Part shown: one piece after another, positions 5,783 through 16,120 of the stretch | How positions within the stretch are numbered: the stretch's first letter is position 1 | How the letters are laid out: each line of letters begins with the position of its first letter | From: a virus | Virus record (IMG/VR): IMGVR_UViG_3300033512_000125 | Location: 11,363 to 75,362 of that record | Reading direction: 5' to 3' (one strand) | DNA: 64,000 nt | The notes under the pieces: generated by a model | Seen by the model: the letters and a program-made list of their open reading frames with translations, nothing else | The model's database searches: none | Told to the model about the DNA's origin: nothing | Program-made: the position numbers and the translations under genes

Positions 5783-6003
5783 TTATAATAATATTCGCGG
5801 TAATAGGAATGATTTTCTCTGTTATTTTTATAATTTACCTTCTTGTAATTATATCTAACTATTTTGAAAAAAATAAAATTAAAAGAAAAGAATTAATTAA
5901 TTTCAAAAATAAAATAGAAGATGAAGATTTAAAAAAATCTTGGGTCAATTTCTTAGAGAAAAAATATAATAATTCTTATTGGAATGAAAAATTAAATTAT
6001 TAA
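5779..6003 (+). CDS. small membrane protein
   Basis: N-terminal hydrophobic helix. Confidence 0.55.
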   Translation: MIIIIFAVIGMIFSVIFIIYLLVIISNYFEKNKIKRKELINFKNKIEDEDLKKSWVNFLEKKYNNSYWNEKLNY

Positions 6004-6005
6004 TC

Positions 6006-6242
6006 ATGGAAAATACAGAACGTTATATAGGTTATGGTAAATTATTAGATTTACCAAGCGGTAGAGTAGGTTTAGAACTTACTTTAAATAATTTAAGAGA
6101 ATTAGTTATTGAAATGGAAAAACTAGATAAAGTAAAAATTCTAGTTTTACCTGTTAAAGAACATAACGTTACAGAATGGAGAACTCATTCTGTGAAAGTA
6201 GGAGAAAGTAAATATAAAAAAGAACTTATAAATGAACATTAG
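6006..6242 (+). CDS. hypothetical protein
   Basis: 78-aa ORF, packed. Confidence 0.55.
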   Translation: MENTERYIGYGKLLDLPSGRVGLELTLNNLRELVIEMEKLDKVKILVLPVKEHNVTEWRTHSVKVGESKYKKELINEH

Positions 6243-6244
6243 TT

Positions 6245-6499
6245 ATGAAACATAAATTTAGTAGAGGTGATGGTTTTATTGGAACCCAAGAGGAGAGAAA
6301 AATATTACAACAATTAATAATAAATAAAGGATACAACCATTCCCCAGGTTTTAAAACAAATAATGGAGGAAATGATTTTCTCTGGAGTGTAAATGAATTC
6401 TATCTAACAATAAACAGATCAGGAATTACTAATCCAATCCCATTCGAAGAATTCAAAAGATTATTATCTAATAATGAATATGAGTATGAAATCTACTAA
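6245..6499 (+). CDS. YEIY-tail family protein
   Basis: MKHKFSRGDG...EYEIY; similar to ORF 7187. Confidence 0.65.
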   Translation: MKHKFSRGDGFIGTQEERKILQQLIINKGYNHSPGFKTNNGGNDFLWSVNEFYLTINRSGITNPIPFEEFKRLLSNNEYEYEIY

Positions 6500-6935
6500 G
6501 ATTTTAATCATAGGCCAAGCCCCACCCTCAGTAAATCAACGCGTTCCTTATGACACAACGATGTTATATGAAATATTAGAGTGGGTTAATATAACCAAAG
6601 AAGACGCGCATAATATATTTGAATTTGATGCAGTTTATAATAAATTTCCTGGTTATGGTCCTAATAAAGAACATTTAAAACCAACACAGGAACAAATGAA
6701 TTCTTATTGGGAACAGGAACTGGAGGGAAAAGTACAACTAGCTGATAAGATTATCTTATTAGGAAATGTTGCTAAAGATTTTATAAATTCTAAACCTAAA
6801 ACATGGTCTTGTAGTACAGAATTTTTAGAATTAGTTCACCCATCACGTTTAAATTATAATCGAATTATACAGAATAAAGAAAATATAACTAGTAAATTAA
6901 AACAATTTATATGGGGTTTCATAAAGGAGATATAG
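6486..6935 (+). CDS. uracil-DNA glycosylase-like protein
   Basis: ILIIGQAP (motif A-like), IILLGNVA, LVHPS (motif B). Confidence 0.65.
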   Translation: MKSTKILIIGQAPPSVNQRVPYDTTMLYEILEWVNITKEDAHNIFEFDAVYNKFPGYGPNKEHLKPTQEQMNSYWEQELEGKVQLADKIILLGNVAKDFINSKPKTWSCSTEFLELVHPSRLNYNRIIQNKENITSKLKQFIWGFIKEI

Positions 6936-7183
6936 TATACCATGGATGGAGTAATGGACATTATTATATAACAGAAGTTACGGAATGGAAAAAAGATTGG
7001 ATAAAAGGAAGGCATTGTTTGTGGATAAAACAGGAAAATTTTAAATTTGAAGATAACTATCAAAATAATATAGGAGATGAAATTAGATTAGCTACCAATG
7101 AAGAAGTTAGTTGGTTTAATGAATGCATAAAAAATAGAAAATATATACCCTTTAATAATAAACAATATTACGAAATATATTAA
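6911..7183 (+). CDS. YEIY-tail family protein
   Basis: FHKGDIVY...RLATNEE..WFNECIK...YYEIY. Confidence 0.65.
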   Translation: MGFHKGDIVYHGWSNGHYYITEVTEWKKDWIKGRHCLWIKQENFKFEDNYQNNIGDEIRLATNEEVSWFNECIKNRKYIPFNNKQYYEIY

Positions 7184-7186
7184 AAT

Positions 7187-7483
7187 ATGAAATATCAATT
7201 TAAAGAAGGAGATGGAGTAACCCATCTTACCGCAACGGTAGAGGAGAGAGAGAAAATATATAAATTATTAAAAAAAAATAATTATCCCTCATATGCTAAT
7301 TATGAAAATAATTCATATAGGTATGGAGGAAGTTGGGCTAATCAATTTACCAACAATTTCCGTTTTAATAAACAAGGTAAATGGGTTACTTCTAGTAAAC
7401 AACAAGTAACTAATGCTATGTCATATGAACAGTTTAAAACTTTAATTGAAAATGATGGTGAACCACAATACGAAATTTATTAA
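7187..7483 (+). CDS. YEIY-tail family protein
   Basis: MKYQFKEGDG...QYEIY. Confidence 0.65.
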   Translation: MKYQFKEGDGVTHLTATVEEREKIYKLLKKNNYPSYANYENNSYRYGGSWANQFTNNFRFNKQGKWVTSSKQQVTNAMSYEQFKTLIENDGEPQYEIY

Positions 7484-7485
7484 TT

Positions 7486-7779
7486 ATGGAAAAATCGAAA
7501 ATAAAAAGAGGAGATTACATTTATGAAGAGAATGAATATTTGATTTTTATAAATTTAATGAAAAACAAAGAAAAACCTTTATATTTTATTCAAATCAATA
7601 AAGGTGGAAAATTTATAGGCAAGGATAATGATTCAGGAATATATGGACAAAAATTATTGCGATACGCCACACCACTTGAAAAATTTTGGTTAGACGAATG
7701 TATTAAAATAGGACAATTTATTGAAAAGGATAAAATTGAGAAAAAATTCAATGGTGAAATTCATTATGAAATCTACTAA
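7486..7779 (+). CDS. YEIY-tail family protein
   Basis: IKRGDYIY...RYATPLE..WLDECIK...HYEIY; similar to ORF 6911. Confidence 0.65.
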   Translation: MEKSKIKRGDYIYEENEYLIFINLMKNKEKPLYFIQINKGGKFIGKDNDSGIYGQKLLRYATPLEKFWLDECIKIGQFIEKDKIEKKFNGEIHYEIY

Positions 7780-7810
7780 TTTTTAATATTTATAATAAAA
7801 ACAAAATAAA

Positions 7811-8092
7811 ATGAATAGATTTATATCAAAGGTTGAACCAAGAACAACTTATATTAAAGATGAATCATTAAAGGAAATTGGAGAGAGTTACAGTACTGAT
7901 ATATCAATATTAGTTAGTAAGGTAAATCAATTCTTAATATCACTCAATGGATTATATATTGGGGGTGATGCTGAGTTTAGTAAAGTAGAATTAATAAAAT
8001 ATATCGATTCTTTATATAACCCTGAGTTAATAGAATCTGATAATCCTAGAGGTGAAGGTTTAGGTGGTATAGAAGGTAATGGAAGAGTATAA
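7811..8092 (+). CDS. hypothetical protein (late-motif preceded)
   Basis: 93 aa; ATATTTATA at 7786. Confidence 0.6.
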   Translation: MNRFISKVEPRTTYIKDESLKEIGESYSTDISILVSKVNQFLISLNGLYIGGDAEFSKVELIKYIDSLYNPELIESDNPRGEGLGGIEGNGRV

Positions 8093-8625
8093 TGAAATTT
8101 AGAATAATAGAAAATCAGGAAGATATATCTCTAAATAGAGGTCATTCAAGAAGTGAATTAGATTTACTTTTAACCCCAATAGATTCAAAAACAAATGATG
8201 TTGATGCTGCTCTAAATAATAGGGAAAATTATGGTTCTTATTTAATTAATGTAAGAGATAAATCATCTGTAAATAAAGCAATTGAGGATTATTTTGGTCC
8301 TACATTACCTACAAAGAAAAAACCATTAGAAAAATTAAGAGGTGAACCATTTCCTCCCAAAACAAAACAAGCTATGGATGATTTTTTAAAAGGTTTGGAA
8401 GTAGGGAAACCTAATATATTAACTTGGGAAATTAAACCTAATGGTACTATATTATTTCCATCTAAGAAAAATGAATCACAACAAAAAACTATTAATGTTC
8501 TTAAACAAGTTTTAGGTAATGCTGGGATTAAATATAAATTAGAACATTTTGAAAATTTAGCAGAGTATTCTAAGCCATCTCTAAATGAAGTAAAAAGAAT
8601 GCAAAGATTAGCAGGTTTAAAATAA
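8092..8625 (+). CDS. hypothetical protein, C-terminal RMQRLAGLK motif
   Basis: 177 aa; the LAGL motif recurs in other late proteins. Confidence 0.65.
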   Translation: MKFRIIENQEDISLNRGHSRSELDLLLTPIDSKTNDVDAALNNRENYGSYLINVRDKSSVNKAIEDYFGPTLPTKKKPLEKLRGEPFPPKTKQAMDDFLKGLEVGKPNILTWEIKPNGTILFPSKKNESQQKTINVLKQVLGNAGIKYKLEHFENLAEYSKPSLNEVKRMQRLAGLK

Positions 8626-8660
8626 TTTTAAAGAAAAATTTGTTTACCCAAATATTTATT

Positions 8661-8670
8661 CGTATATTTA
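8661..8670 (+). promoter_or_regulatory. putative early/host-sigma promoter motif CGTATATTTA (type example)
   Basis: Also at 9218, 12909, 16182 and 49709; variants at 14006, 43395 and 60376; always intergenic and usually about 20 nt after a TTTG/TTG element; resembles the Bacteroidota TTTG...TAnnTTTG consensus. Confidence 0.65.
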
Positions 8671-8850
8671 ACCAAATAAAAATAATTAATATGAAACAAG
8701 ATATTATAGCAATGACTAAAACTGGTATTTAATTATGAAAAAATCAGATGTAATAATGGGTTCACCTATAAAAGGTGGAACAGGAATGAATAAAATAGAA
8801 GGAAATAGTTGGGAAGGATAAAAATTTCTCAATTTTTACAAAAACTTTAT

Positions 8851-8859
8851 ATATTTATA
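8851..8859 (+). promoter_or_regulatory. putative late promoter motif ATATTTATA (type example)
   Basis: Intergenic copies at 7786, 8851, 9528, 14009, 22398, 25675, 35149, 42616, 48483, 52568 and 63238 (variant 28368), mostly 6-30 nt before ATGs. Confidence 0.6.
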
Positions 8860-8865
8860 TATAAC

Positions 8866-8988
8866 ATGAAAAAATATAATAACATATCGAAAACGTTTAG
8901 AACACTTAATCATAGTGATTGGGCCGGTATGTCTATTTATAATACAGTAAGTTTACAACCGGAATCCCAAGGTGGAACGGAAGTTTGA
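8866..8988 (+). CDS. putative attenuator leader peptide (40 aa)
   Basis: MKKYNNISKTFRTLNHSDWAGMSIYNTVSLQPESQGGTEV*; contains GGAACGG complementary to the downstream terminator arm. Confidence 0.6.
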   Translation: MKKYNNISKTFRTLNHSDWAGMSIYNTVSLQPESQGGTEV

Positions 8989-9014
8989 TAGTAGTAATTT
9001 AAATATACTATATA

Positions 9015-9047
9015 AAACCCGTTCCTAAATAGAACGGGTTTCTTTTT
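9015..9047 (+). terminator. attenuator-type intrinsic terminator
   Basis: AAACCCGTTC-CTAAATA-GAACGGGTTT followed by CTTTTT. Confidence 0.85.
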
Positions 9048-9057
9048 ACAATAAAAT

Positions 9058-9130
9058 GCCTGTGTAGCTCAAATGGTAGAGCGCCGCTTTTGTACTGCGA
9101 TGGTTGGGGTTTCGATTACTCTCACAGGCT
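9058..9130 (+). tRNA. tRNA-Thr(UGU)
   Basis: GCCTGTG/CACAGGC acceptor; loop TTTGTAC; weak anticodon stem. Confidence 0.8.
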
Positions 9131-9250
9131 CAAAATTAAAAAACATTTTAAAAAAGGTTTGGATTTTAATAGAATTTAAAAATTCCAATAAAGGAATTTG
9201 AAAATTAAGTTTGAAATCGTATATTTACAATATAAGAAATTTAAATAATT

Positions 9251-9268
9251 CGTTATTTGACATATTGG
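9251..9268 (+). promoter_or_regulatory. boxA-like antitermination element
   Basis: CGTTATTTGACATATTGG just downstream of the promoter at 9218. Confidence 0.45.
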
Positions 9269-9277
9269 ATATTATTT

Positions 9278-9361
9278 GGTGGGTATCTGGCTGGATCAAG
9301 AGCGACTCTTGAAAAGTCGTAGCAGGTAAAACTGTTGTGAGTTCGAGTCTCACACCCACTT
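9278..9361 (+). tRNA. tRNA-Ser(UGA)
   Basis: CGACT-CTTGAAA-AGTCG; long variable arm; GTTCGAGTC. Confidence 0.9.
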
Positions 9362-9423
9362 CAAAGTAAGAAGTAAGGTAAGCGCACCTTGTTAAGAGCA
9401 GAACCTCTTAACCTTACTTATTT

Positions 9424-9495
9424 TGCCTGTTCGTATATCGGTTATTACAGATGTTTTTGGCGCATCTAAGGGTGGTTCGATTCCACCACAGGTAA
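9424..9495 (+). tRNA. tRNA-Gln(UUG)
   Basis: U1-A72 acceptor TGCCTGT/ACAGGTA; GATGT-TTTTGGC-GCATC. Confidence 0.85.
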
Positions 9496-9550
9496 CAAAA
9501 ATAGGTTCAAGTCTCTCAGAGAGACATATATTTATATTAAATAATTAGAT

Positions 9551-10012
9551 ATGAAAATATGTGCTAAATGTAAAGAAGAAAAAAACTTATATGAATTTAC
9601 AAAAAATAAATCTCAACCAGATGGGATGCAAAGATATTGTAAAAAATGTAAAAAGGTAAGTGATAAAAAATGGATTGACGAAAACCCTTCTATATGGAAA
9701 GAAGGAAATAGGCTAAAAAATGAAAAGATAAAATTAATATTATCAGAAATTAGAATATCTTTAGGAAGTAAATGCATAAAATGTAGTGAAAGTAGAGAAC
9801 ATTTACTCGATTTTCATCATATTGATAAGAATGATAAAGAAGCTATTATATCATCTATATTATCATATAATGGTTTTGGAACTCAAGCATTAAAAAAAGC
9901 TTATGATGAAGCTAATAAATGTGTTTTATTATGTTCTAATTGCCATCGTGACTTTCATTTCATGGAAAGAACGAATAATATAGATTTGAATAAATATTTA
10001 ACGGGATACTAG
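9551..10012 (+). CDS. HNH homing endonuclease
   Basis: CxxC zinc motifs, LDFHH, CVLLCSNCHRDFH. Confidence 0.9.
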   Translation: MKICAKCKEEKNLYEFTKNKSQPDGMQRYCKKCKKVSDKKWIDENPSIWKEGNRLKNEKIKLILSEIRISLGSKCIKCSESREHLLDFHHIDKNDKEAIISSILSYNGFGTQALKKAYDEANKCVLLCSNCHRDFHFMERTNNIDLNKYLTGY

Positions 10013-10078
10013 GGCAGACGCAAGAACCCACATGTTTTGGGAACATGAGATTCGCCGGTTGGATTCCGGCTATCCCGA
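10002..10078 (+). tRNA. tRNA-Pro(UGG)
   Basis: CGGGATA/TATCCCG; CATGT-TTTGGGA-ACATG; T-loop TTGGATT; overlaps the HNH stop. Confidence 0.85.
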
Positions 10079-10136
10079 CGAGAGAGACTGTTGTTAATTC
10101 ATAGGGCGTATAGAGTCGCTGCGTAGAATTAAATTT

Positions 10137-10207
10137 GCCCTCGAGGCTTTAAAGTGAAGCACCTAGCTTTTAACTAGGGTAAGAAGGAGCATTACCTTCC
10201 GGGGGTA
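10137..10207 (+). tRNA. tRNA-Lys(UUU), atypical T-loop
   Basis: CCTAG-CTTTTAA-CTAGG; T arm GAAGG-AGCATTA-CCTTC. Confidence 0.8.
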
Positions 10208-10300
10208 CAATAAGGTAGAACTAGAGGTTCCTAAATAGTACTTAAAATACCCTAGTAAGTTTTTTAGTTGACTTTTTCTTTAAAAAAGAAGTTTTCATCT

Positions 10301-10375
10301 GCTTCCTTAACTCAGCCTGGTAAGAGTGCTTGTCTTACATACAAGAAGTCGTAGGTTCAAATCCTACAGGAAGTA
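10301..10375 (+). tRNA. tRNA-Val(UAC)
   Basis: CTTGT-CTTACAT-ACAAG. Confidence 0.92.
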
Positions 10376-10458
10376 CGAGGAAATAAATAAGGGTATTACT
10401 ACTCCCTTATCACCCATATTTGAGGTGATTGGTGTAAATATAACACAATTTCCTTTTT

Positions 10459-10532
10459 GCCCTATTAGCTCATTTGGTTAGAGCGCATGTCTTATACACA
10501 TGAGGTACTTGGTTCAATCCCAATATAGGGTA
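10459..10532 (+). tRNA. tRNA-Ile(UAU)
   Basis: CATGT-CTTATAC-ACATG; canonical cloverleaf. Confidence 0.88.
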
Positions 10533-10540
10533 CAAATAAT

Positions 10541-10622
10541 GGGTAGTAAAAGTCATTCGGATATGGCAACGAGTCTGTAAAACTCGTCCTTACTGGGAGT
10601 GGTTCGAGTCCACTATTACCCA
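10541..10622 (+). tRNA. tRNA-Tyr(GUA)
   Basis: CGAGT-CTGTAAA-ACTCG; variable arm. Confidence 0.88.
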
Positions 10623-10628
10623 CAATTT

Positions 10629-10703
10629 GGGAATATAGCGCAGTTGGTCAGTTCGCGCTAGACTGAAAATCTAGAGATATGGGTTCGATTCCCATTATTC
10701 CCA
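10629..10703 (+). tRNA. tRNA-Phe(GAA)
   Basis: CTAGA-CTGAAAA-TCTAG. Confidence 0.92.
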
Positions 10704-10777
10704 CAAAAATCCTGCTTAGAGGGTCAGAGAGGAGAAGTTAAAATTTAATTTAACTAGCCGCTTTAAGTAGGTGAAAT

Positions 10778-10849
10778 TGCCCTCTCGTATAAAGGTTATT
10801 ACGGTTGACTGTTAATCAATTTATCAGAGTTCGAGTCTCTGGGGGGCAG
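10778..10849 (+). tRNA. tRNA-Asn(GUU)
   Basis: GTTGA-CTGTTAA-TCAAT; G73. Confidence 0.9.
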
Positions 10850-10855
10850 CAATAC

Positions 10856-10928
10856 AGGCGTATCGTCTAATTGGTTAGGACGCATGGCTGATAACTATGT
10901 AATCCCAGTTCAAATCTGGGTATGCCTA
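10856..10928 (+). tRNA. tRNA-Ile(GAU)
   Basis: CATGG-CTGATAA-CTATG. Confidence 0.9.
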
Positions 10929-10934
10929 CAAAAT

Positions 10935-11019
10935 GGAGATTTACTCAAACGGTAAAGAGGCTTGTTTGCTAAACAAGTAGGGTGTAATAACTACATGGGT
11001 TCGAATCCCATAGTCTCCG
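10935..11019 (+). tRNA. tRNA-Ser(GCU)
   Basis: CTTGT-TTGCTAA-ACAAG; long variable arm; G73. Confidence 0.92.
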
Positions 11020-11147
11020 CAAAAACCTATTCACCGTCCTCATTACGTGTTTAAGGAACACAGGAGATGAAAGTACGAACGGGGCTCCGTGGTAAAACAC
11101 ATAAAAATTATATAGTACAACGGTAAGTTAAAGGGTTCTTATCAAAT

Positions 11148-11217
11148 ACCGAATGGTCTTGGTGACCGAGAACGGCTCATATCCGATCTTAGATTGGTTC
11201 AAAACCAATATTCGGTA
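11148..11217 (+). tRNA. tRNA(CAU), Met or Ile2, compact D arm
   Basis: ACCGAAT/ATTCGGT acceptor; CGG-CTCATAT-CCG; T arm ATTGG-TTCAAAA-CCAAT. Confidence 0.65.
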
Positions 11218-11289
11218 CAAATCAGGTGGGGAAAATATACCTTAAATGCTAACGGTTAAAATCCATTAGGAGGTCAGCCTGTTTTATAT

Positions 11290-11378
11290 GGTGTGTAAGT
11301 TGGATATTGGTTTGCCAAGCTTGTCTGTGAAACAAGAGTTTAATTTAAAACATGCGGGTTCGATCCCCGTTATACACC
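11290..11378 (+). tRNA. tRNA-His(GUG) with long variable arm
   Basis: Encoded G-1:C73; CTTGT-CTGTGAA-ACAAG; 17-nt variable region. Confidence 0.85.
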
Positions 11379-11484
11379 CAAAAAAATCGTTATATAAATG
11401 CAATCCCTTTGGTAATGCAGAGTAGAACTTTATAAAAGGAGAATGCGCAACTCCGGAGGTTAAGCGATAATTCCTCCATTTTAT

Positions 11485-11556
11485 GTGCTTATAGTTTAAT
11501 TGGAAAAACTTTGAGGTACGATCTCAAGATTATAGGTTCGAATCCTATTAGGCATT
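11485..11556 (+). tRNA. tRNA-Arg(ACG)
   Basis: TTGAG-GTACGAT-CTCAA. Confidence 0.85.
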
Positions 11557-11560
11557 CAAG

Positions 11561-11840
11561 TATTAATTGATGACGTTTATGGACGTTCTTTAGGACGAGA
11601 GTTCGATCCTCTCCAGCTCCACTAATAGTGAGAAAAAATATGGGGCTGTTTGGTTTTGACTATAGTTTAGTAGATAAATCGAGATTAATATTAAAAGTAA
11701 AGGACAACTTTGCAATAGCAGCTTAATAAGCTCATAGCGTTGATGTTGTGTTCGACTTGGTCGCGGTAAAAAGAAGATACAAGGTATAGTCGTTTTATTT
11801 CCCAAGCAATGAGAGTGTAGCGTGATCTACCCAAATTCGA
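11561..11840 (+). ncRNA. ssrA: circularly permuted (two-piece) tmRNA; outer ends approximate
   Basis: 3' acceptor piece GGACGAGAGTTCGATCCTCTCCAGCTCCA (11593-11621) precedes 5' piece GGGGCTG...TTTTGAC (11642); G3.U70; tag frame 11697-11726 VKDNFAIAA*. Confidence 0.88.
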
Positions 11841-11848
11841 ACTTTTAA

Positions 11849-11921
11849 GCCTCTATAGTATAAATGGAAATACAGCTTCCTTCTAAGAAGTATTATACCT
11901 GTTCGAATCGGGTTAGGGGTA
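11849..11921 (+). tRNA. tRNA-Arg(UCU)
   Basis: GCTTC-CTTCTAA-GAAGT. Confidence 0.88.
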
Positions 11922-11930
11922 CAAGTAAAT

Positions 11931-12002
11931 GCGTCTGTCGGCAACGGTAGTCACCAACTCTCCAAAAGTTGAAAAGTGTAGGTTCGAATCCTACCAGGCG
12001 TG
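11931..12002 (+). tRNA. tRNA-Trp(CCA)
   Basis: CAACT-CTCCAAA-AGTTG; G73. Confidence 0.9.
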
Positions 12003-12070
12003 CAAAAATTAATTATTATGAAAAAATTATTAGATGCCTTATAAGTTAATAACTTATAAAAAAGGCAAAA

Positions 12071-12217
12071 ATGAGCAGAACATTCAGAGAAGATCCAAGA
12101 AGACACATTAAAGTACCAGATGGTAAATTTTGGAGAAAATGTAAATGTAATTGGTGTATAAATATACCTTATAGAGATAGATATGGTTTAACCGTTAAAG
12201 AAAATCTATCATTATGA
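12071..12217 (+). CDS. small basic Cys-containing protein (48 aa)
   Basis: MSRTFREDPRRH...CKCNWC; ATGA overlap with the next ORF; below the ORF-track size cutoff. Confidence 0.5.
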   Translation: MSRTFREDPRRHIKVPDGKFWRKCKCNWCINIPYRDRYGLTVKENLSL

Positions 12218-12381
12218 GAATTAAAGATTATACACAAAAAGAGTATAAAAGAGAAGCAGCATTTTATAAATATCCCCCATATTGGGATGAAGGATTAAGA
12301 TTAAAAGGAAGATTACAATCTTTTGAACAAAGAATGTATAAAACTTGGAAACACAATAGAAAAACACAATATAAGTTATGA
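12214..12381 (+). CDS. small basic protein (55 aa)
   Basis: ...RMYKTWKHNRKTQYKL*; ATGA-coupled on both sides. Confidence 0.55.
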   Translation: MRIKDYTQKEYKREAAFYKYPPYWDEGLRLKGRLQSFEQRMYKTWKHNRKTQYKL

Positions 12382-12881
12382 CACAGAAAAAAACATTAGT
12401 AATAGATTCAAGTTATATGCCACGGAGTATTATAAATTCCGAACGTGCTTTTGTAATCTCATATAAAGGAAATGCTGAAATTATATATGAACATAATGAA
12501 AGTTTTGGTTTAGTAAATCCTAATTTGGATATAAAAAAACCATCAATTATTAAAGTTCATAAATATGTAAATCAAAAGTTTCACAAAGTTCCTTTTAGTA
12601 GAGAAAATGTGTTTAAAAGAGATAACTATGAATGTGTTTATTGTGGTTGTTCAAATAGAAAAACATTAACATTAGATCACGTTCATCCAACATCTAAAGG
12701 AGGACAAAATACTTTTGAAAATGTTGTTACTGCTTGTAGATCATGTAATGGTGAAAAAGCAGATTTAACATTACAAGAATGGGGAAAGGATATCCCAGAA
12801 CCAAAACGACCTCATTATCTTATGTTAATGAGAGGATTAGATGAAATACCTAAAGAATGGGAAAAGTTTCTCTTCTTATAA
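12378..12881 (+). CDS. HNH endonuclease (McrA/HNH_5-like)
   Basis: RDNYECVYCG, LTLDHVHP..KGG, NVVTACRSCNGEK. Confidence 0.92.
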   Translation: MTQKKTLVIDSSYMPRSIINSERAFVISYKGNAEIIYEHNESFGLVNPNLDIKKPSIIKVHKYVNQKFHKVPFSRENVFKRDNYECVYCGCSNRKTLTLDHVHPTSKGGQNTFENVVTACRSCNGEKADLTLQEWGKDIPEPKRPHYLMLMRGLDEIPKEWEKFLFL

Positions 12882-12932
12882 AAGGAATTGGATTTTATAT
12901 TTTAAAATCGTATATTTACAACATAGAAATTT

Positions 12933-13001
12933 AAATAATTAGCTTAAGAGTTTAAAGCGTGTCCTAAGACAAGATATGGATTCAATAAACCATATTATTT
13001 A
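12933..13001 (+). ncRNA. tRNA-like element with collapsed anticodon arm
   Basis: AAATAAT/ATTATTT acceptor, D arm GCTT..AAGC, TGTC-CTAA-GACA, T-like arm ATGG..TTCAATA..CCAT. Confidence 0.5.
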
Positions 13002-13144
13002 ATTTTTTTAAAAACAGAAACAATATGAAAAAATTATTAAAAAACTTGTTTTCTAAAATTTCTTTTCGTATGTTTAAAAAGAAAGAAGAGATTCTTAGAA
13101 AAATTGAAATGCCAAGAGAATTTTGGTATTAAATTAAAAAAAAT

Positions 13145-13218
13145 GGTACTGTACCCGAGCGATCTAAGGGAGTCCGTTGCAACCGGAATGTTCGTAAGTT
13201 TGAATCTTACCAGTACTT
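13145..13218 (+). tRNA. tRNA-Cys(GCA)
   Basis: TCCG-TTGCAAC-CGGA; U73. Confidence 0.88.
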
Positions 13219-13225
13219 CAATTAA

Positions 13226-13437
13226 GATTCGACCCTCAACTAATTATTTAGTCAGAGGATGCTACCGAAATTGAAAAGTGGTCTTACATAAGATAAAATA
13301 AGGAGAATGTTAATTCGAATCTAACCGAATCGCACGGTTTAGTAGCTTGAATTGGTAAAGCACCTTACAAGATAAGAAGAGAGAACCGTGAGTTGCGATC
13401 GAAAGATTATAAACGAGCAAACGTCATACTCTTCTTA
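13226..13437 (+). ncRNA. YrlA/Y-RNA-like RNA (rod capped by a permuted tRNA-like domain); ends approximate
   Basis: TAAGG(13299)-AGAAT-T arm(13309-25)-closed acceptor-like loop-TA-D arm(13345-61)-A-CCTTA(13363); flanks pair into a rod 13258-13400. Confidence 0.65.
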
Positions 13438-13440
13438 AAC

Positions 13441-13520
13441 GCCCCAATGGTGAAATTGGTAAACACAGCAGGCTTAAAACTTGCCGTTTCGGCTTGAAGG
13501 TTCGAGTCCTTCTTGGGGTA
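13441..13520 (+). tRNA. tRNA-Leu(UAA)
   Basis: GCAGG-CTTAAAA-CTTGC; variable arm. Confidence 0.92.
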
Positions 13521-13633
13521 CAAGATTATTTACAGGGTAGAAATGCCGCGCTTTGATAGAACTATAGATAACTATTGGAGAAATGGATAAAAATGCGGTA
13601 GGTAAATCCTCTACCCTGTAAATGATTTAATAA

Positions 13634-13708
13634 GCTCGTGTGGCGGAACTGGTAGACGCGCTTGATTTAGGATCAAGATTTTTGTGGGTTCGAATCCCAC
13701 CTAGAGTA
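13634..13708 (+). tRNA. tRNA-Leu(UAG), short variable region
   Basis: CTTGA-TTTAGGA-TCAAG; Leu-type D loop; two acceptor mismatches. Confidence 0.82.
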
Positions 13709-13778
13709 CAAAAAACTTATTTTATATCGAAGGAACTTATAAAGGAAGCCCTAGTGTAATATTTAATAAGTTTTAATT

Positions 13779-13854
13779 GCGGAATTCGCATAGTGGTCGA
13801 TTGCGCTACACTTCCAATGTAGAATCACCGTGGGTTCGAATCCCACATTCCTCT
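13779..13854 (+). tRNA. tRNA-Gly(UCC)
   Basis: CTACA-CTTCCAA-TGTAG; U73. Confidence 0.9.
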
Positions 13855-14029
13855 CAAAAAACTTCTATTATCCATGAGGCGTTAGCGACACCGAGAGTAG
13901 GGTAACAAGAAAGGCGTACTAGATAATGCTAATAAGGCTAGTTATGTGTTACTCGTTGGGATTAGAAGTTTTTTTAAAATAGATTTGGATTTTAAAAATT
14001 AAGTTCATATATTTATAATATAATAATTT

Positions 14030-14101
14030 GACGCATTAGTGAAGTGGTTAACACGAGATACTTTCTATATCTAGGCACGGGTTCGAATCCCGTATGCGTT
14101 A
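14030..14101 (+). tRNA. tRNA-Glu(UUC)
   Basis: AGATA-CTTTCTA-TATCT. Confidence 0.9.
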
Positions 14102-14109
14102 CAAATAAT

Positions 14110-14182
14110 GGGTCGTTAGCATAAATGGCAAATGCGCTTGGTTTGCAACCAGGAAGATAGAGTTCGAATCTCTACGTATCCA
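14110..14182 (+). tRNA. tRNA-Ala(UGC)
   Basis: CTTGG-TTTGCAA-CCAGG; G3.U70; irregular lower acceptor stem. Confidence 0.82.
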
Positions 14183-14251
14183 CAACCGTATTAAGAGGTT
14201 AAAGTTTAATCTACTTGACAGATTTGACAACTTGGAACAGACAAGTATTTT

Positions 14252-14327
14252 GGTCCTATAAGCATCGTAGGTTGATGAATTGCGTTGTCACCGCTCTAAA
14301 ATGAGGGTTCGAAACCCTCTAGGACCG
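14252..14327 (+). tRNA. tRNA-Asp(GUC)
   Basis: GGTCCTA/TAGGACC; loop TTGTCAC; G73. Confidence 0.85.
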
Positions 14328-14342
14328 CGGAATAAAATAAAT

Positions 14343-14418
14343 CGCGAGTGGGAGGCATAGAGTTTTCGCAAGTCTCATAAACTTGACATAAGACAGGGGC
14401 GGTACCTGTACTTCGCTA
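14343..14418 (+). tRNA. tRNA-Met(CAU), initiator-like with atypical T-loop
   Basis: CGCGAGT start with a 1:72 mismatch; CAAGT-CTCATAA-ACTTG; T arm ACAGG-GGCGGTA-CCTGT. Confidence 0.7.
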
Positions 14419-14642
14419 CTAATGACTAAGAGGTGCTCAGAGTGTTTGTAACTTCACCATTAAAGAGTTATGGTTGGTTCTCCTACGATTTTACAGAAGG
14501 GGACCGTAGGGCAAAAGGATGTTACCAACTCCTCCACGGAAGGTTGCTTTATAGTTTCATCTGGTAAGACAGTAATGGTTTAATTTTTAAGAAAAAAACA
14601 ACCGTTAAAATCTAGTTACAGTAATCTCATGTAATGAAAATT

Positions 14643-14716
14643 GGCCTTATAGCTCAGTTGGTTAGAGCAGATGACTCATAATCATCAGGTCACAGGTTCG
14701 AGTCCTGTTGGGGCCA
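14643..14716 (+). tRNA. tRNA(CAU), Ile2-like
   Basis: GGCCTTATAGCTCAGTTGGTTAGAGCA...CTCATAA; body resembles bacterial tRNA-Ile2. Confidence 0.85.
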
Positions 14717-14750
14717 CAATTAATATTCAAAAACTAATTAAATTAAGATC

Positions 14751-15668
14751 ATGAGAAGAAATTCACTTTCTACAAAAGGTTTATCCCTATCTACAGCTCA
14801 ATCAATTTCTAACCTTTGTAATCAAAGAAGTAAAGAAATTAATTCTAAGTTAGAGCAAACAAATAATTTTTCCCGTACACTTAAAATTGATGGGGAAATT
14901 TATACCGAAACTGAGTCATCTCCATTGCCAGGAGATGTGGTATCTCTATTGAGAGAGAAGTCTCGTTTACATGCTTCCCAAGCTTTTCTTATGGAAAATA
15001 TTAAAGCTAAAGATGAAATGATTAATTCTATTAAAAAAGAATCATTTCAGTTTGAAGTAGAACAAACACAAAGAGGTCAATTAGAATCTCCTAAACTAAA
15101 TCAACTTGTTGATGAAAGTTGGGGTTGGGAACAGTTATCTATCCAAGAATATAACGAATTTCTTGAAGCAGAATCATATGCAGCCCATATCGGATAATAT
15201 ATTCATAATGGAGGTAAGTTAGATCGTTTAAGAAAAGAATTACCTAATATTAAAACATTGGAATTTTTTGAGGTTGAAGCAGGTAAGAAAACACCTATAA
15301 AAGTAAATATTCATCATACCTCAGAACAATTAGTTACTCTTCATGAAGAATTAGCTGCTTTGCATAGAGACTATGAGAAAAAAGTGAATTACTTTAAATC
15401 AAAAGTAAAAAATGCTGTTACAACAGAAAACGCTCGTATTTCGAAAGAAAATGGTGTTGAACAAGCTCGTGTGAATGAAATTAATAATAATATTAATGAA
15501 GTTTATCAAAAAGAATTCCAAGGTTGGGCAGCAAATTATAGAAAAGCTTTACAAGACTTTGAGGAAAAAAGACAAAATAGAATTCAAGAAGCAGTAGCTT
15601 TAAGAATTGAAGTACCATCTCAATTTCAAGGTGTGGTAGATGAATTTACTAAACAATTAGGTGAATAA
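14751..15668 (+). pseudogene. single coiled-coil protein gene (~305 codons) interrupted by in-frame TAA at 15195-15197
   Basis: Track ORFs 14751..15197 and 15258..15668 are in the same frame; the 20 intervening codons are open (AAHIG*YIHNGGKLDRLRKELPNIKTLEFF). Confidence 0.7.
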
Positions 15669-15882
15669 TATGGAAGGATTTTTCATGTGTTTAGCATTTA
15701 TATTCATTGTAGTCCTTATAGCAGCAGTATTTGGAAGTGATTAATATAATATGGTACCAAAAGGGATAAACATAAGTTGATTCTCTTAGGTTTTATGTTG
15801 GGTATTGAAGATTTTTACTTCATCGAAGTATTACTAAAAATATGATATATACATAAATTTAAACAGCAAATTTAAATTGGCA

Positions 15883-16120
15883 AATATGGGCTTCGGCGCA
15901 TATTATCAATCCATTCGCTTCTTCTTAAAATAAACCTAAACTGAGATAGAACTCAATGATTAAACAAGTTACTCAAAGCCATAGAGAAAGAGAAATCTTT
16001 ACCACTAGGGAGATAATTGGTTAATAAAAGAGACTTAGTTTTTGTCTTTGCCTGTGTAAAGAGGAAGGTCTTTGTTTTAGATTTTGATTTTATTTTAGAC
16101 TATATACTTTAATTACCCAA
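15883..16120 (+). ncRNA. candidate structured ncRNA
   Basis: C(UUCG)G hairpin, several long-range complementarities, downstream terminator. Confidence 0.45.

Follow-up and report, generated by a model that had tools for sequence, protein, structure and literature searches.

A short region in front of the tRNA-Thr(UGU) gene of an uncultured phage may well be a ribosome-operated transcription attenuator, in which RNA polymerase would read through into the tRNA gene only when a preceding 40-codon leader is read slowly; we assign this reading a probability of roughly 0.55. The parts of such a switch are present, they are conserved and covary among relatives, the two alternative RNA pairings are mutually exclusive, and the leader stop codon keeps a fixed geometry relative to them. 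If the reading is correct, the phage gauges how much translation capacity is available and tunes its tRNA output accordingly. The common view of phage tRNA arrays is that of constitutive cargo, serving to match codon usage or to make up for tRNAs that host defences have destroyed (for example, PMC11555353), and a full-text search of the literature retrieved no account of tRNA genes, whether of phages or not, that are controlled by leader-peptide attenuation.

Source of the sequence and its promoter-like motifs

The window, as we call the whole 64,000-nt stretch analysed here, corresponds to bases 11363-75362 of the 90-kb IMG/VR record IMGVR_UViG_3300033512_000125, the completeness of which was estimated at ~56% by CheckV. 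The record has a G+C content of 27.5%, carries nearly all of its genes on the + strand, and encodes a baseplate wedge protein, a terminase, a portal protein and a major head protein. No Shine-Dalgarno sequence was found before any gene of the record. Because Shine-Dalgarno sites are absent and promoter-like sequences of the form TTTG-N19-20-TAnnTTTG resemble those of Flavobacterium sigma-A, the source fits an uncultured phage of the Flavobacterium type. The features discussed below are listed in Table 1.

Table 1. Features in and around the putative attenuator (positions in the window)
Feature	Position	Strand	Description
Host-type promoter-like site, upstream	8639-8670	+	TTTG, 20 nt, TATATTTA; kept in relatives
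Two mini-ORFs	8691-8821	+	13 and 28 codons; between the upstream promoter-like site and the leader
Late-type promoter-like motif	8851-8859	+	ATATTTATA; 6 nt before the leader ATG
Leader ORF	8866-8988	+	ATG, 40 sense codons, TGA at 8986-8988
Segment 1 (minimum-energy folds)	8885-8898	+	Contains codons TCG-AAA-ACG
CCG..UCC	8959-8967	+	Codons 32-34
Segment 2	8974-8980	+	GGAACGG; codons 37-39; 5' strand of the antiterminator
Middle hairpin	8988-9011	+	8988-8993 with 9006-9011; top of the antiterminator stem-loop
Intrinsic terminator (predicted)	9015-9047	+	5' arm 9015-9024 (segment 3), 3' arm 9032-9041 (segment 4), C and T-run 9042-9047
tRNA-Thr(UGU)	9058-9131	+	Rfam 54 bits; 10 nt past the T-run
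Host-type promoter-like site, next	9196-9227	+	TTTG, 20 nt, TATATTTA; ahead of tRNA-Ser(UGA) at 9278
Permuted tmRNA	11575-11726		Rfam 61.8 bits (gathering score 47)

Two promoter-like classes were noticed genome-wide, namely ATATTTATA and CGTATATTTA(C) with TTTG 19-20 nt upstream. The former occurs in 24 copies on the + strand (7.8 expected), 15 of which lie 3-28 nt ahead of an ORF start. Since the genes behind it include those for the terminase large subunit, a PhoH-like protein and an adaptor-like protein (all annotated outside the window), 'late-type' is a reasonable label for this putative promoter class. Many structural and packaging genes have the motif 13-20 nt ahead. It precedes the leader in 10 of the 11 variants described below, and if the copy at 8851 is read like a -7 box, the leader mRNA would be nearly leaderless. 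A perfect inverted repeat, TTTCTCA...TGAGAAA, stands directly before the late-type motif in the clade of L047 and L049 (L047:100-150; L049:860-880); the window retains only its left half (8826-8832).

The second motif, CGTATATTTA, is present in seven copies on the + strand and none on the - strand, with 0.35 expected. Its class fits the Flavobacterium sigma-A consensus, in which the -7 box TAnnTTTG is located at -12 to -5 (PMC9723704). Sites of this class (8639-8670, 9196-9227 and one at 12910) precede small genes that look early and also occur within the tRNA array. Transcripts from the putative promoter upstream of the mini-ORFs would also traverse the leader, and the putative promoter behind tRNA-Thr, the motif of which was also read in L002, L047 and L049, serves tRNA-Ser(UGA) and the genes beyond. 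For tRNA-Thr itself, we found neither a promoter-like site between the T-run and the gene nor, on inspection of 8911-8950 by eye, a sigma-A-type or -35/-10-type promoter with a workable spacer within the leader ORF.

Relatives of the leader region

Ten related metagenomic phage contigs were gathered for comparison, giving 11 variants together with the window. The close relative L002 was reached via a neighbouring 177-residue protein, further small ORFs were recovered by searches with the 40-residue leader peptide and then with its profile, after which their contigs were taken, and L049, which comes from a 175-kb contig, was added by a DNA pattern scan. Of the 22 loci returned by that loose scan, just two were genuine, namely L049 and the L002 contig that had been found before. 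The sole locus from a peptide-profile scan of metagenomes was discarded as a false positive, since the match lay out of frame in a bacterial gene rich in G+C. When viral contigs were scanned for exact patterns of the terminator and of segment 2, one close relative and nothing further came up, a blastn search against annotated phages matched only the tRNA-Ser, and no tRNAs were found near the genes for more distant relatives of the 177-residue protein (L003-L012). Among sequencing runs kept as contigs, at most 21% of the sampled words were found in any run. A 1006-nt contig of a relative from a wastewater metatranscriptome spans 8987-9284 and thereby bridges the terminator; it is indistinguishable from DNA, and contigs show no transcript ends.

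The order of elements common to the variants is a promoter-like motif, the ORF, the terminator, tRNA-Thr(UGU), a host-type promoter motif and tRNA-Ser(UGA), usually followed by tRNA-Gln and tRNA-Pro(UGG). Exceptions are L038, in which tRNA-Thr is separated from the terminator by a homing-endonuclease gene and the terminator has a degraded T-run, and L041, in which the 5' end is replaced. G001, a distant relative with a complete 172-kb genome, has a late-type motif, a 22-codon ORF and tRNA-Thr; in this genome we detected no homologue of the leader, no terminator and no significant structure (z = 0), and the putative attenuator is therefore specific to one clade. In a further stretch of G001 (L028:16361-17040), ARAGORN called a tRNA with a four-base anticodon (gaaa), which is accompanied by two more tRNA-like genes that have the same acceptor and T arm and long inserts, with short ORFs between them.

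The leader ORF

An ATG start and an open frame of 35-41 codons are kept in all 11 variants. At least five indels have accumulated in the leader, each of them a multiple of three (9, 3 and 3 nt in the body, and tails of 21, 24 or 27 nt), and in L041 the 5' end has been replaced, yet the ATG and the frame are kept. Between clades, the leaders differ by synonymous changes (ACA/ACG, CTT/CTA, ATT/ATC, GGT/GGA, GTA/GTG and TCT/AGT) and by replacements that are mostly conservative; within the window clade, a 48-nt core is identical in nucleotides, without any synonymous change. We regard the leader ORF as a real, maintained coding frame, because it is open in 11 variants, its indels are all multiples of three and the clades are separated by synonymous changes. 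Its conservation in relatives had been named in the first-pass annotation as a check on the attenuator, and that check came out positive.

At the protein level, the core FRT(L/I)N..W.G..YN..QP is conserved, with the W and the QP invariant and a W-to-P distance of 13, 10 or 9 residues depending on the variant. This conservation suggests that the peptide itself may have a function, and no PHROG family matched it. The tail after QP is variable, and the tails ESQGGTEV, KPNTGMGI, GSKTRTGI, DPHRTDI and NPNMDGN are unrelated as peptides. In the window clade, the leader ends with four consecutive in-frame stops, TGA TAG TAG TAA (8986-8997), which lie within the middle hairpin; this run is missing from L047, L049 and L031. 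The mini-ORFs upstream of the leader differ in number and length among relatives (window 8691-8821; L038:291-401; L040:685-798) and have the short modules KGGTGMN.(I/L)EG and GGTEV in common. In L038, the upstream mini-ORF and the leader share the ending GGAGGAAC.GAAGTTT, suggesting a duplication.

Competing structures in the window copy

The first-pass annotation described a late-type motif, a 40-codon ORF, a strong terminator and the first tRNA in succession, together with an exact complement between GGAACGG near the end of the ORF and the 5' arm of the terminator, and all of these positions hold on recheck. The predicted terminator has a 10-bp stem with five G-C pairs, a 7-nt loop and then a C and five T, with an energy of -13.1 to -13.3 kcal/mol; its description as strong is borne out, as it ranks best among the eight terminator-like sites in 6000-16000. 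Segment 2 is the exact reverse complement of CCGTTCC at 9019-9025 in the 5' arm, and GAACGG recurs as a direct repeat in segments 2 and 4. In full, the antiterminator comprises ~50 nt folded as a stem-loop, with the helix between segments 2 and 3, a short helix holding the stop codon, and the middle hairpin. In minimum-energy folds, segment 1 is predicted to pair with segment 2 until segment 3 is made; this pairing is predicted in the window clade and is absent in L041, L031 and the other clade. Once the terminator has formed, a weak local hairpin is predicted between CCG..UCC and segment 2. CAACCG is invariant in 11 of 11 variants, and since both sides of the hairpin are invariant, covariation has nothing to read there.

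To judge how unusual the upstream pairing is, we took every terminator-like hairpin found on the + strand of the 90-kb record, 13 in all, and computed how much energy the 5' arm gains from pairing with the preceding 100 nt while the 3' arm has yet to be made. The terminator in front of tRNA-Thr gains -9.7 kcal/mol, by far the strongest of the 13 (0 to -4.6 kcal/mol for the other 12), and one of 100 shuffles was as low. Random 24-nt windows of the genome pair equally well with the terminator arm in 0.17% of cases.

At equilibrium, the terminator of the window copy has a probability of 0.95 under every ribosome mask. It is favoured by ~2-5 kcal/mol in the window, L040, L041 and L031, in which masking is without effect (P 0.91-0.96); the extension helix is weaker in the window, because AUAAAAC, not AUACGAAC, precedes the arm. 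The free RNAs of L037, L002 and L042 favour the antiterminator (terminator P 0.00-0.12), and masking a ribosome footprint at the stop codon raises the terminator to 0.93-0.96. Natural variants thus include strong (L037 and L002) and weak (window and L040) antiterminators. As the terminator wins at equilibrium in the window copy, control there would have to be kinetic. The antiterminator is the lowest-energy fold of this copy until the transcript reaches ~9037, and the barrier from the antiterminator to the terminator along the direct path is estimated at 12.5 kcal/mol. A kinetic block of the terminator is plausible in these models, because the antiterminator occupies the loop-proximal part of the arm, where the terminator must nucleate.

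Covariation and the position of the stop codon

In an alignment of 10 sequences, 98.8% of the cells in the terminator are paired, with two pairs changed on both sides. The corresponding figure for the antiterminator is 94.2%, against 33-47% when the partners are slid by one to three columns; three of its pairs are changed on both sides, and its covariation score was reached by none of 500 shuffles. As the conserved antiterminator shares the 5' arm of the terminator, the claim that the two pairings exclude each other stands. Two pairs of the middle hairpin are changed on both sides in L047 and L049. When the transcript is cut before the 3' arm, the lowest-energy fold pairs segment 2 with the arm in every variant folded (eight in full, L045 and L047 as a local piece, and L049 as a duplex only).

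The clearest compensating change is found in L047 and L049, in which segment 2 reads GGACGG instead of GGAACGG, segment 3 CCGUCC instead of CCGUUCC, and segment 4 GACGGG instead of GAACGGG, so that one A-U pair has been replaced or lost jointly in all three. Consistent with this, the matrix of duplex energies is block-diagonal, with -13 kcal/mol for window-type segments on their own arm, -12 for those of L047 and L049 on theirs, and -9 for the crosses. L037 carries GGAAUGGG and keeps the pairing through a G-U pair, with 10 of the 24 nt of the patch differing. L031, whose 3' region is the most diverged, has a G-to-A change in the arm that is compensated in the 3' arm; its segment 2 pairs only with a 2-nt bulge (-7.8 kcal/mol), and its own arm serves no better than the arms of other variants. 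The covariation rests on few independent events, essentially those of the L047/L049 clade.

Segment 2 lies in reading frame 1 in the window, 0 in L037 and 2 in L049. Its presence in three frames, with tails that are unrelated as peptides, points to a constraint on the RNA and not on the peptide. In all variants, the stop codon stands 3-5 nt behind segment 2 and within the antiterminator stem; such a fixed position despite unrelated tails is as expected if what counts is where the ribosome terminates, and not the tail of the peptide. On this comparative evidence, the complement of GGAACGG and CCGTTCC is not a product of chance, and its conservation in the 10 relatives, with compensating changes, answers a question raised in the first-pass annotation.

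Rare codons and the tRNA array

GC-ending codons of the leader had been described as uncommon in this genome, and codon usage in 81 long ORFs agrees, with rates per 1000 codons of 1.3 for TCG, 1.0 for ACG, 0.9 for CCG, 2.1 for GCC and 5.4 for TCC. In the window, the leader has TCG at codon 8, ACG at 10, GCC at 20, CCG at 32 and a second ACG at 38. The excess of NCG codons extends across all variants, each of which has three or four where 0.15-0.18 would be expected (Poisson 2e-5 to 9e-4); among in-frame 40-codon windows of the 81 long ORFs, none has four NCG codons and 0.3% have three. ACG and CCG are present in 11 of 11 variants and TCG in nine. The window clade has its ACG and TCG at codons 8-10, whereas the other clade has them at 13 and 16; the codon pair CAA-CCG is invariant. 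The leader contains no tandem run of one regulatory codon. The CpGs of the rare codons could serve RNA pairing instead of slow decoding, and the CCG of the leader can indeed pair with the CGG of segment 2.

ACG, UCG and CCG are the wobble codons of tRNA-Thr(UGU), tRNA-Ser(UGA) and tRNA-Pro(UGG); wherever a variant extends far enough, these three are found among the first four tRNAs of the array, a match noticed post hoc. By a calculation likewise made post hoc, a random order of 23-24 tRNAs would put all three in the first four ~0.2% of the time.

The first-pass annotation had the element gate entry into the whole island of tRNAs and tmRNA, and this part of its proposal did not survive. tRNA-Thr, the arrangement of which is the same in nine of the 10 relatives, is the only tRNA between the terminator and the next promoter-like site; the later tRNAs and the tmRNA have promoter-like sites of their own, and further copies of the motif occur inside the array. 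tRNA-Thr alone is without a promoter of its own, so neither the array as a whole nor the tmRNA is under the control of the element. From the arrangement of these sites, it would strictly gate tRNA-Thr and add late or read-through transcription to the next tRNAs.

Several further features of the array deserve mention. Relatives with nearly identical leaders carry tRNA-Thr(UGU) in at least four versions that differ strongly in sequence (window 9058-9131; L002:6719-6793; L040:1085-1157; L045 ~745-820; L047 ~330-400), and those of L045 and L047 have an odd T arm and were not called by ARAGORN. An HNH homing-endonuclease gene changes its place among relatives, being located between tRNA-Gln and tRNA-Pro in the window (9551-10012) and between the terminator and tRNA-Thr in L038 (L038:665-1243). 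The tRNA at 10137-10207 (Rfam 38 bits), missing from the ARAGORN list, is probably tRNA-Lys(UUU), judging from its position in relatives. The spacer between tRNA-Ser and tRNA-Gln (9363-9423) is filled by a long imperfect hairpin, AAGTAAGGT...CCTTACTT, part of which was listed as a weak terminator in a consensus scan.

Proposed mechanism

Under the attenuator reading, transcription would begin at one of two sites, the late-type motif or the host-type promoter further upstream, and the transcripts would carry the translated leader. Segment 2 and the leader stop codon would supply the 5' strand of a long stem-loop and the loop-proximal half of the terminator's 5' arm its 3' strand, and this antiterminator would form ahead of the synthesis of the 3' arm. 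A ribosome that has arrived at the end of the leader would melt or cover segment 2, so that the terminator could form and end transcription 10 nt short of tRNA-Thr. A lagging ribosome, held up for instance on the rare ACG, UCG and CCG codons, would leave the antiterminator in place, and RNA polymerase would read through into tRNA-Thr(UGU) and on into tRNA-Ser(UGA), tRNA-Gln and tRNA-Pro(UGG). We infer that the choice between the two outcomes is made by translation, with the threshold given by the rare codons and too little decoding capacity as the physiological signal. The leader-peptide attenuator put forward in the first-pass annotation is thus upheld in its architecture, by conservation, covariation and the geometry of the stop codon; on the other hand, the copy in the window itself favours the terminator whatever the ribosome mask.

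It is tempting to go one step further and regard the element as a codon-matched feedback sensor of wobble decoding, in which slow reading of ACG, UCG and CCG would lead to read-through into the genes for tRNA-Thr(UGU), tRNA-Ser(UGA) and tRNA-Pro(UGG), which come at the head of the array in this order. If so, the phage would top up U34 tRNAs when the host pool is depleted or cleaved, and the peptide core FRT..W.G..YN..QP might tune pausing at the invariant CAA-CCG as a nascent-chain element. We offer this extension tentatively, the odds being against it.

Alternative explanations

The region could instead hold a small late gene of the ordinary kind, ended by a terminator of its own, with the peptide of 35-41 residues as the product that matters. 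The hairpin over the last codons would then serve mRNA stability, translation termination or the processing of the tRNA precursor, and tRNA-Thr would be supplied by constitutive leakage of the terminator, without sensing. Such a gene would be expected to keep its peptide core between clades through synonymous and conservative changes, as the leader does; it would also agree with the promoter-like motif of its own at the usual distance in L031, L037 and L045, and with a terminator that is the equilibrium structure in the window copy. We nevertheless consider this explanation unlikely, as the C-terminal tail is unconserved as a peptide and yet its nucleotides pair with the arm in three frames. 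In addition, a plain stabilising hairpin need not compete with the terminator's own arm, the codon quality of the NCG codons is the poorest of the genome, and the peptide matched no PHROG family.

Alternatively, the switch may be real but controlled by a factor acting in trans, be it a tRNA, a small RNA or a protein of phage or host origin, which binds segment 2 or the middle hairpin in place of control by the ribosome, and the leader ORF may be translated for some other reason. This appears quite improbable, because it leaves the invariant stop 3-5 nt behind segment 2 unexplained while the tails are unrelated; no candidate factor was found, and no T-box, riboswitch or leader family reached its threshold. 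The covarying middle hairpin and the conserved internal loops of the antiterminator would nonetheless suit a factor of this kind, and the GAACGG direct repeat of segments 2 and 4 could just as well be bound by a protein.

A non-coding small RNA of ~180 nt, running from the late-type motif to the terminator with an incidental open frame, would account for a region that folds better than its shuffles (z = -3.4) and for the window-clade core of 48 nt without synonymous change. It is very unlikely, since the frame is open in 11 of 11 variants, whereas a random 40-codon frame would be open in ~3% of cases (an estimate from base composition), and since all indels are multiples of three and L041 kept the ATG and the frame after replacement of its 5' end. 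That a chance complement lies beside a normal terminator is scarcely credible, even though the match in the window itself is only 7 nt, given a pairing kept with compensating changes in 10 relatives that is also the strongest upstream pairing of 13 terminators, with a random-window frequency of 0.002.

Comparison with known systems

The ribosome-operated attenuator, which we prefer over these alternatives, can be compared with three kinds of known regulators. T-box leaders are tRNA-sensing riboswitches that switch between a terminator and an antiterminator. The element described here resembles them in that the choice between the two structures would be tied to tRNA supply, and differs in that its leader is far shorter and would be translated; the T-box covariance model of Rfam gave no match in 8600-9300 at E up to 10. 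TnaC of tnaCAB and SecM are nascent-peptide sensors. As in these, a short leader with an invariant Trp and Pro is found here, and regulation would take place at or near the leader stop. Unlike in TnaC, the terminator is of the intrinsic type and not Rho-dependent; unlike in TnaC and SecM, there is no sign of arrest in what the sequence alone reveals. A fixed arrest-peptide geometry of the TnaC/SecM type was rejected, as the W-to-P spacing is 13, 10 or 9 residues.

The closest parallels are the classical leader-peptide attenuators of amino-acid operons, namely trpL, thrL, hisL, leuL, pheL and ilvL (Rfam RF00513, RF00506 and relatives). Membership by homology fails for the Thr_leader family (RF00506), as the score was 27.4 bits against a gathering score of 55, mostly from the terminator hairpin and with 41 model positions skipped; the score for Trp_leader was also below threshold. 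The target here is a phage tRNA gene, unlike the biosynthetic operons behind classical leaders. Unlike trp, his and leu, the leader has no tandem codon run, and has three or four scattered rare NCG codons for Thr, Ser and Pro instead. The conserved peptide core and a 1:2 anti-antiterminator that is weak or clade-specific are further differences from the classical attenuators. Like them, the element has a short leader ORF, a predicted intrinsic terminator directly ahead of the gene to be regulated and an antiterminator built on the 5' arm of the terminator, and its stop codon is placed so that the terminating ribosome would cover the 5' strand of the antiterminator. The rare leader codons may in addition be poorly decoded and correspond to the regulated product. 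Leader-peptide attenuation has been inferred for amino-acid operons of Flavobacterium (PMC9723704). The leader family supplies natural variants for further work, in which the antiterminator is strong or weak, the frame is shifted or an endonuclease gene has been inserted. If the attenuator is genuinely operated by ribosomes, the oldest bacterial RNA control circuit would be extended from amino-acid supply to tRNA supply.
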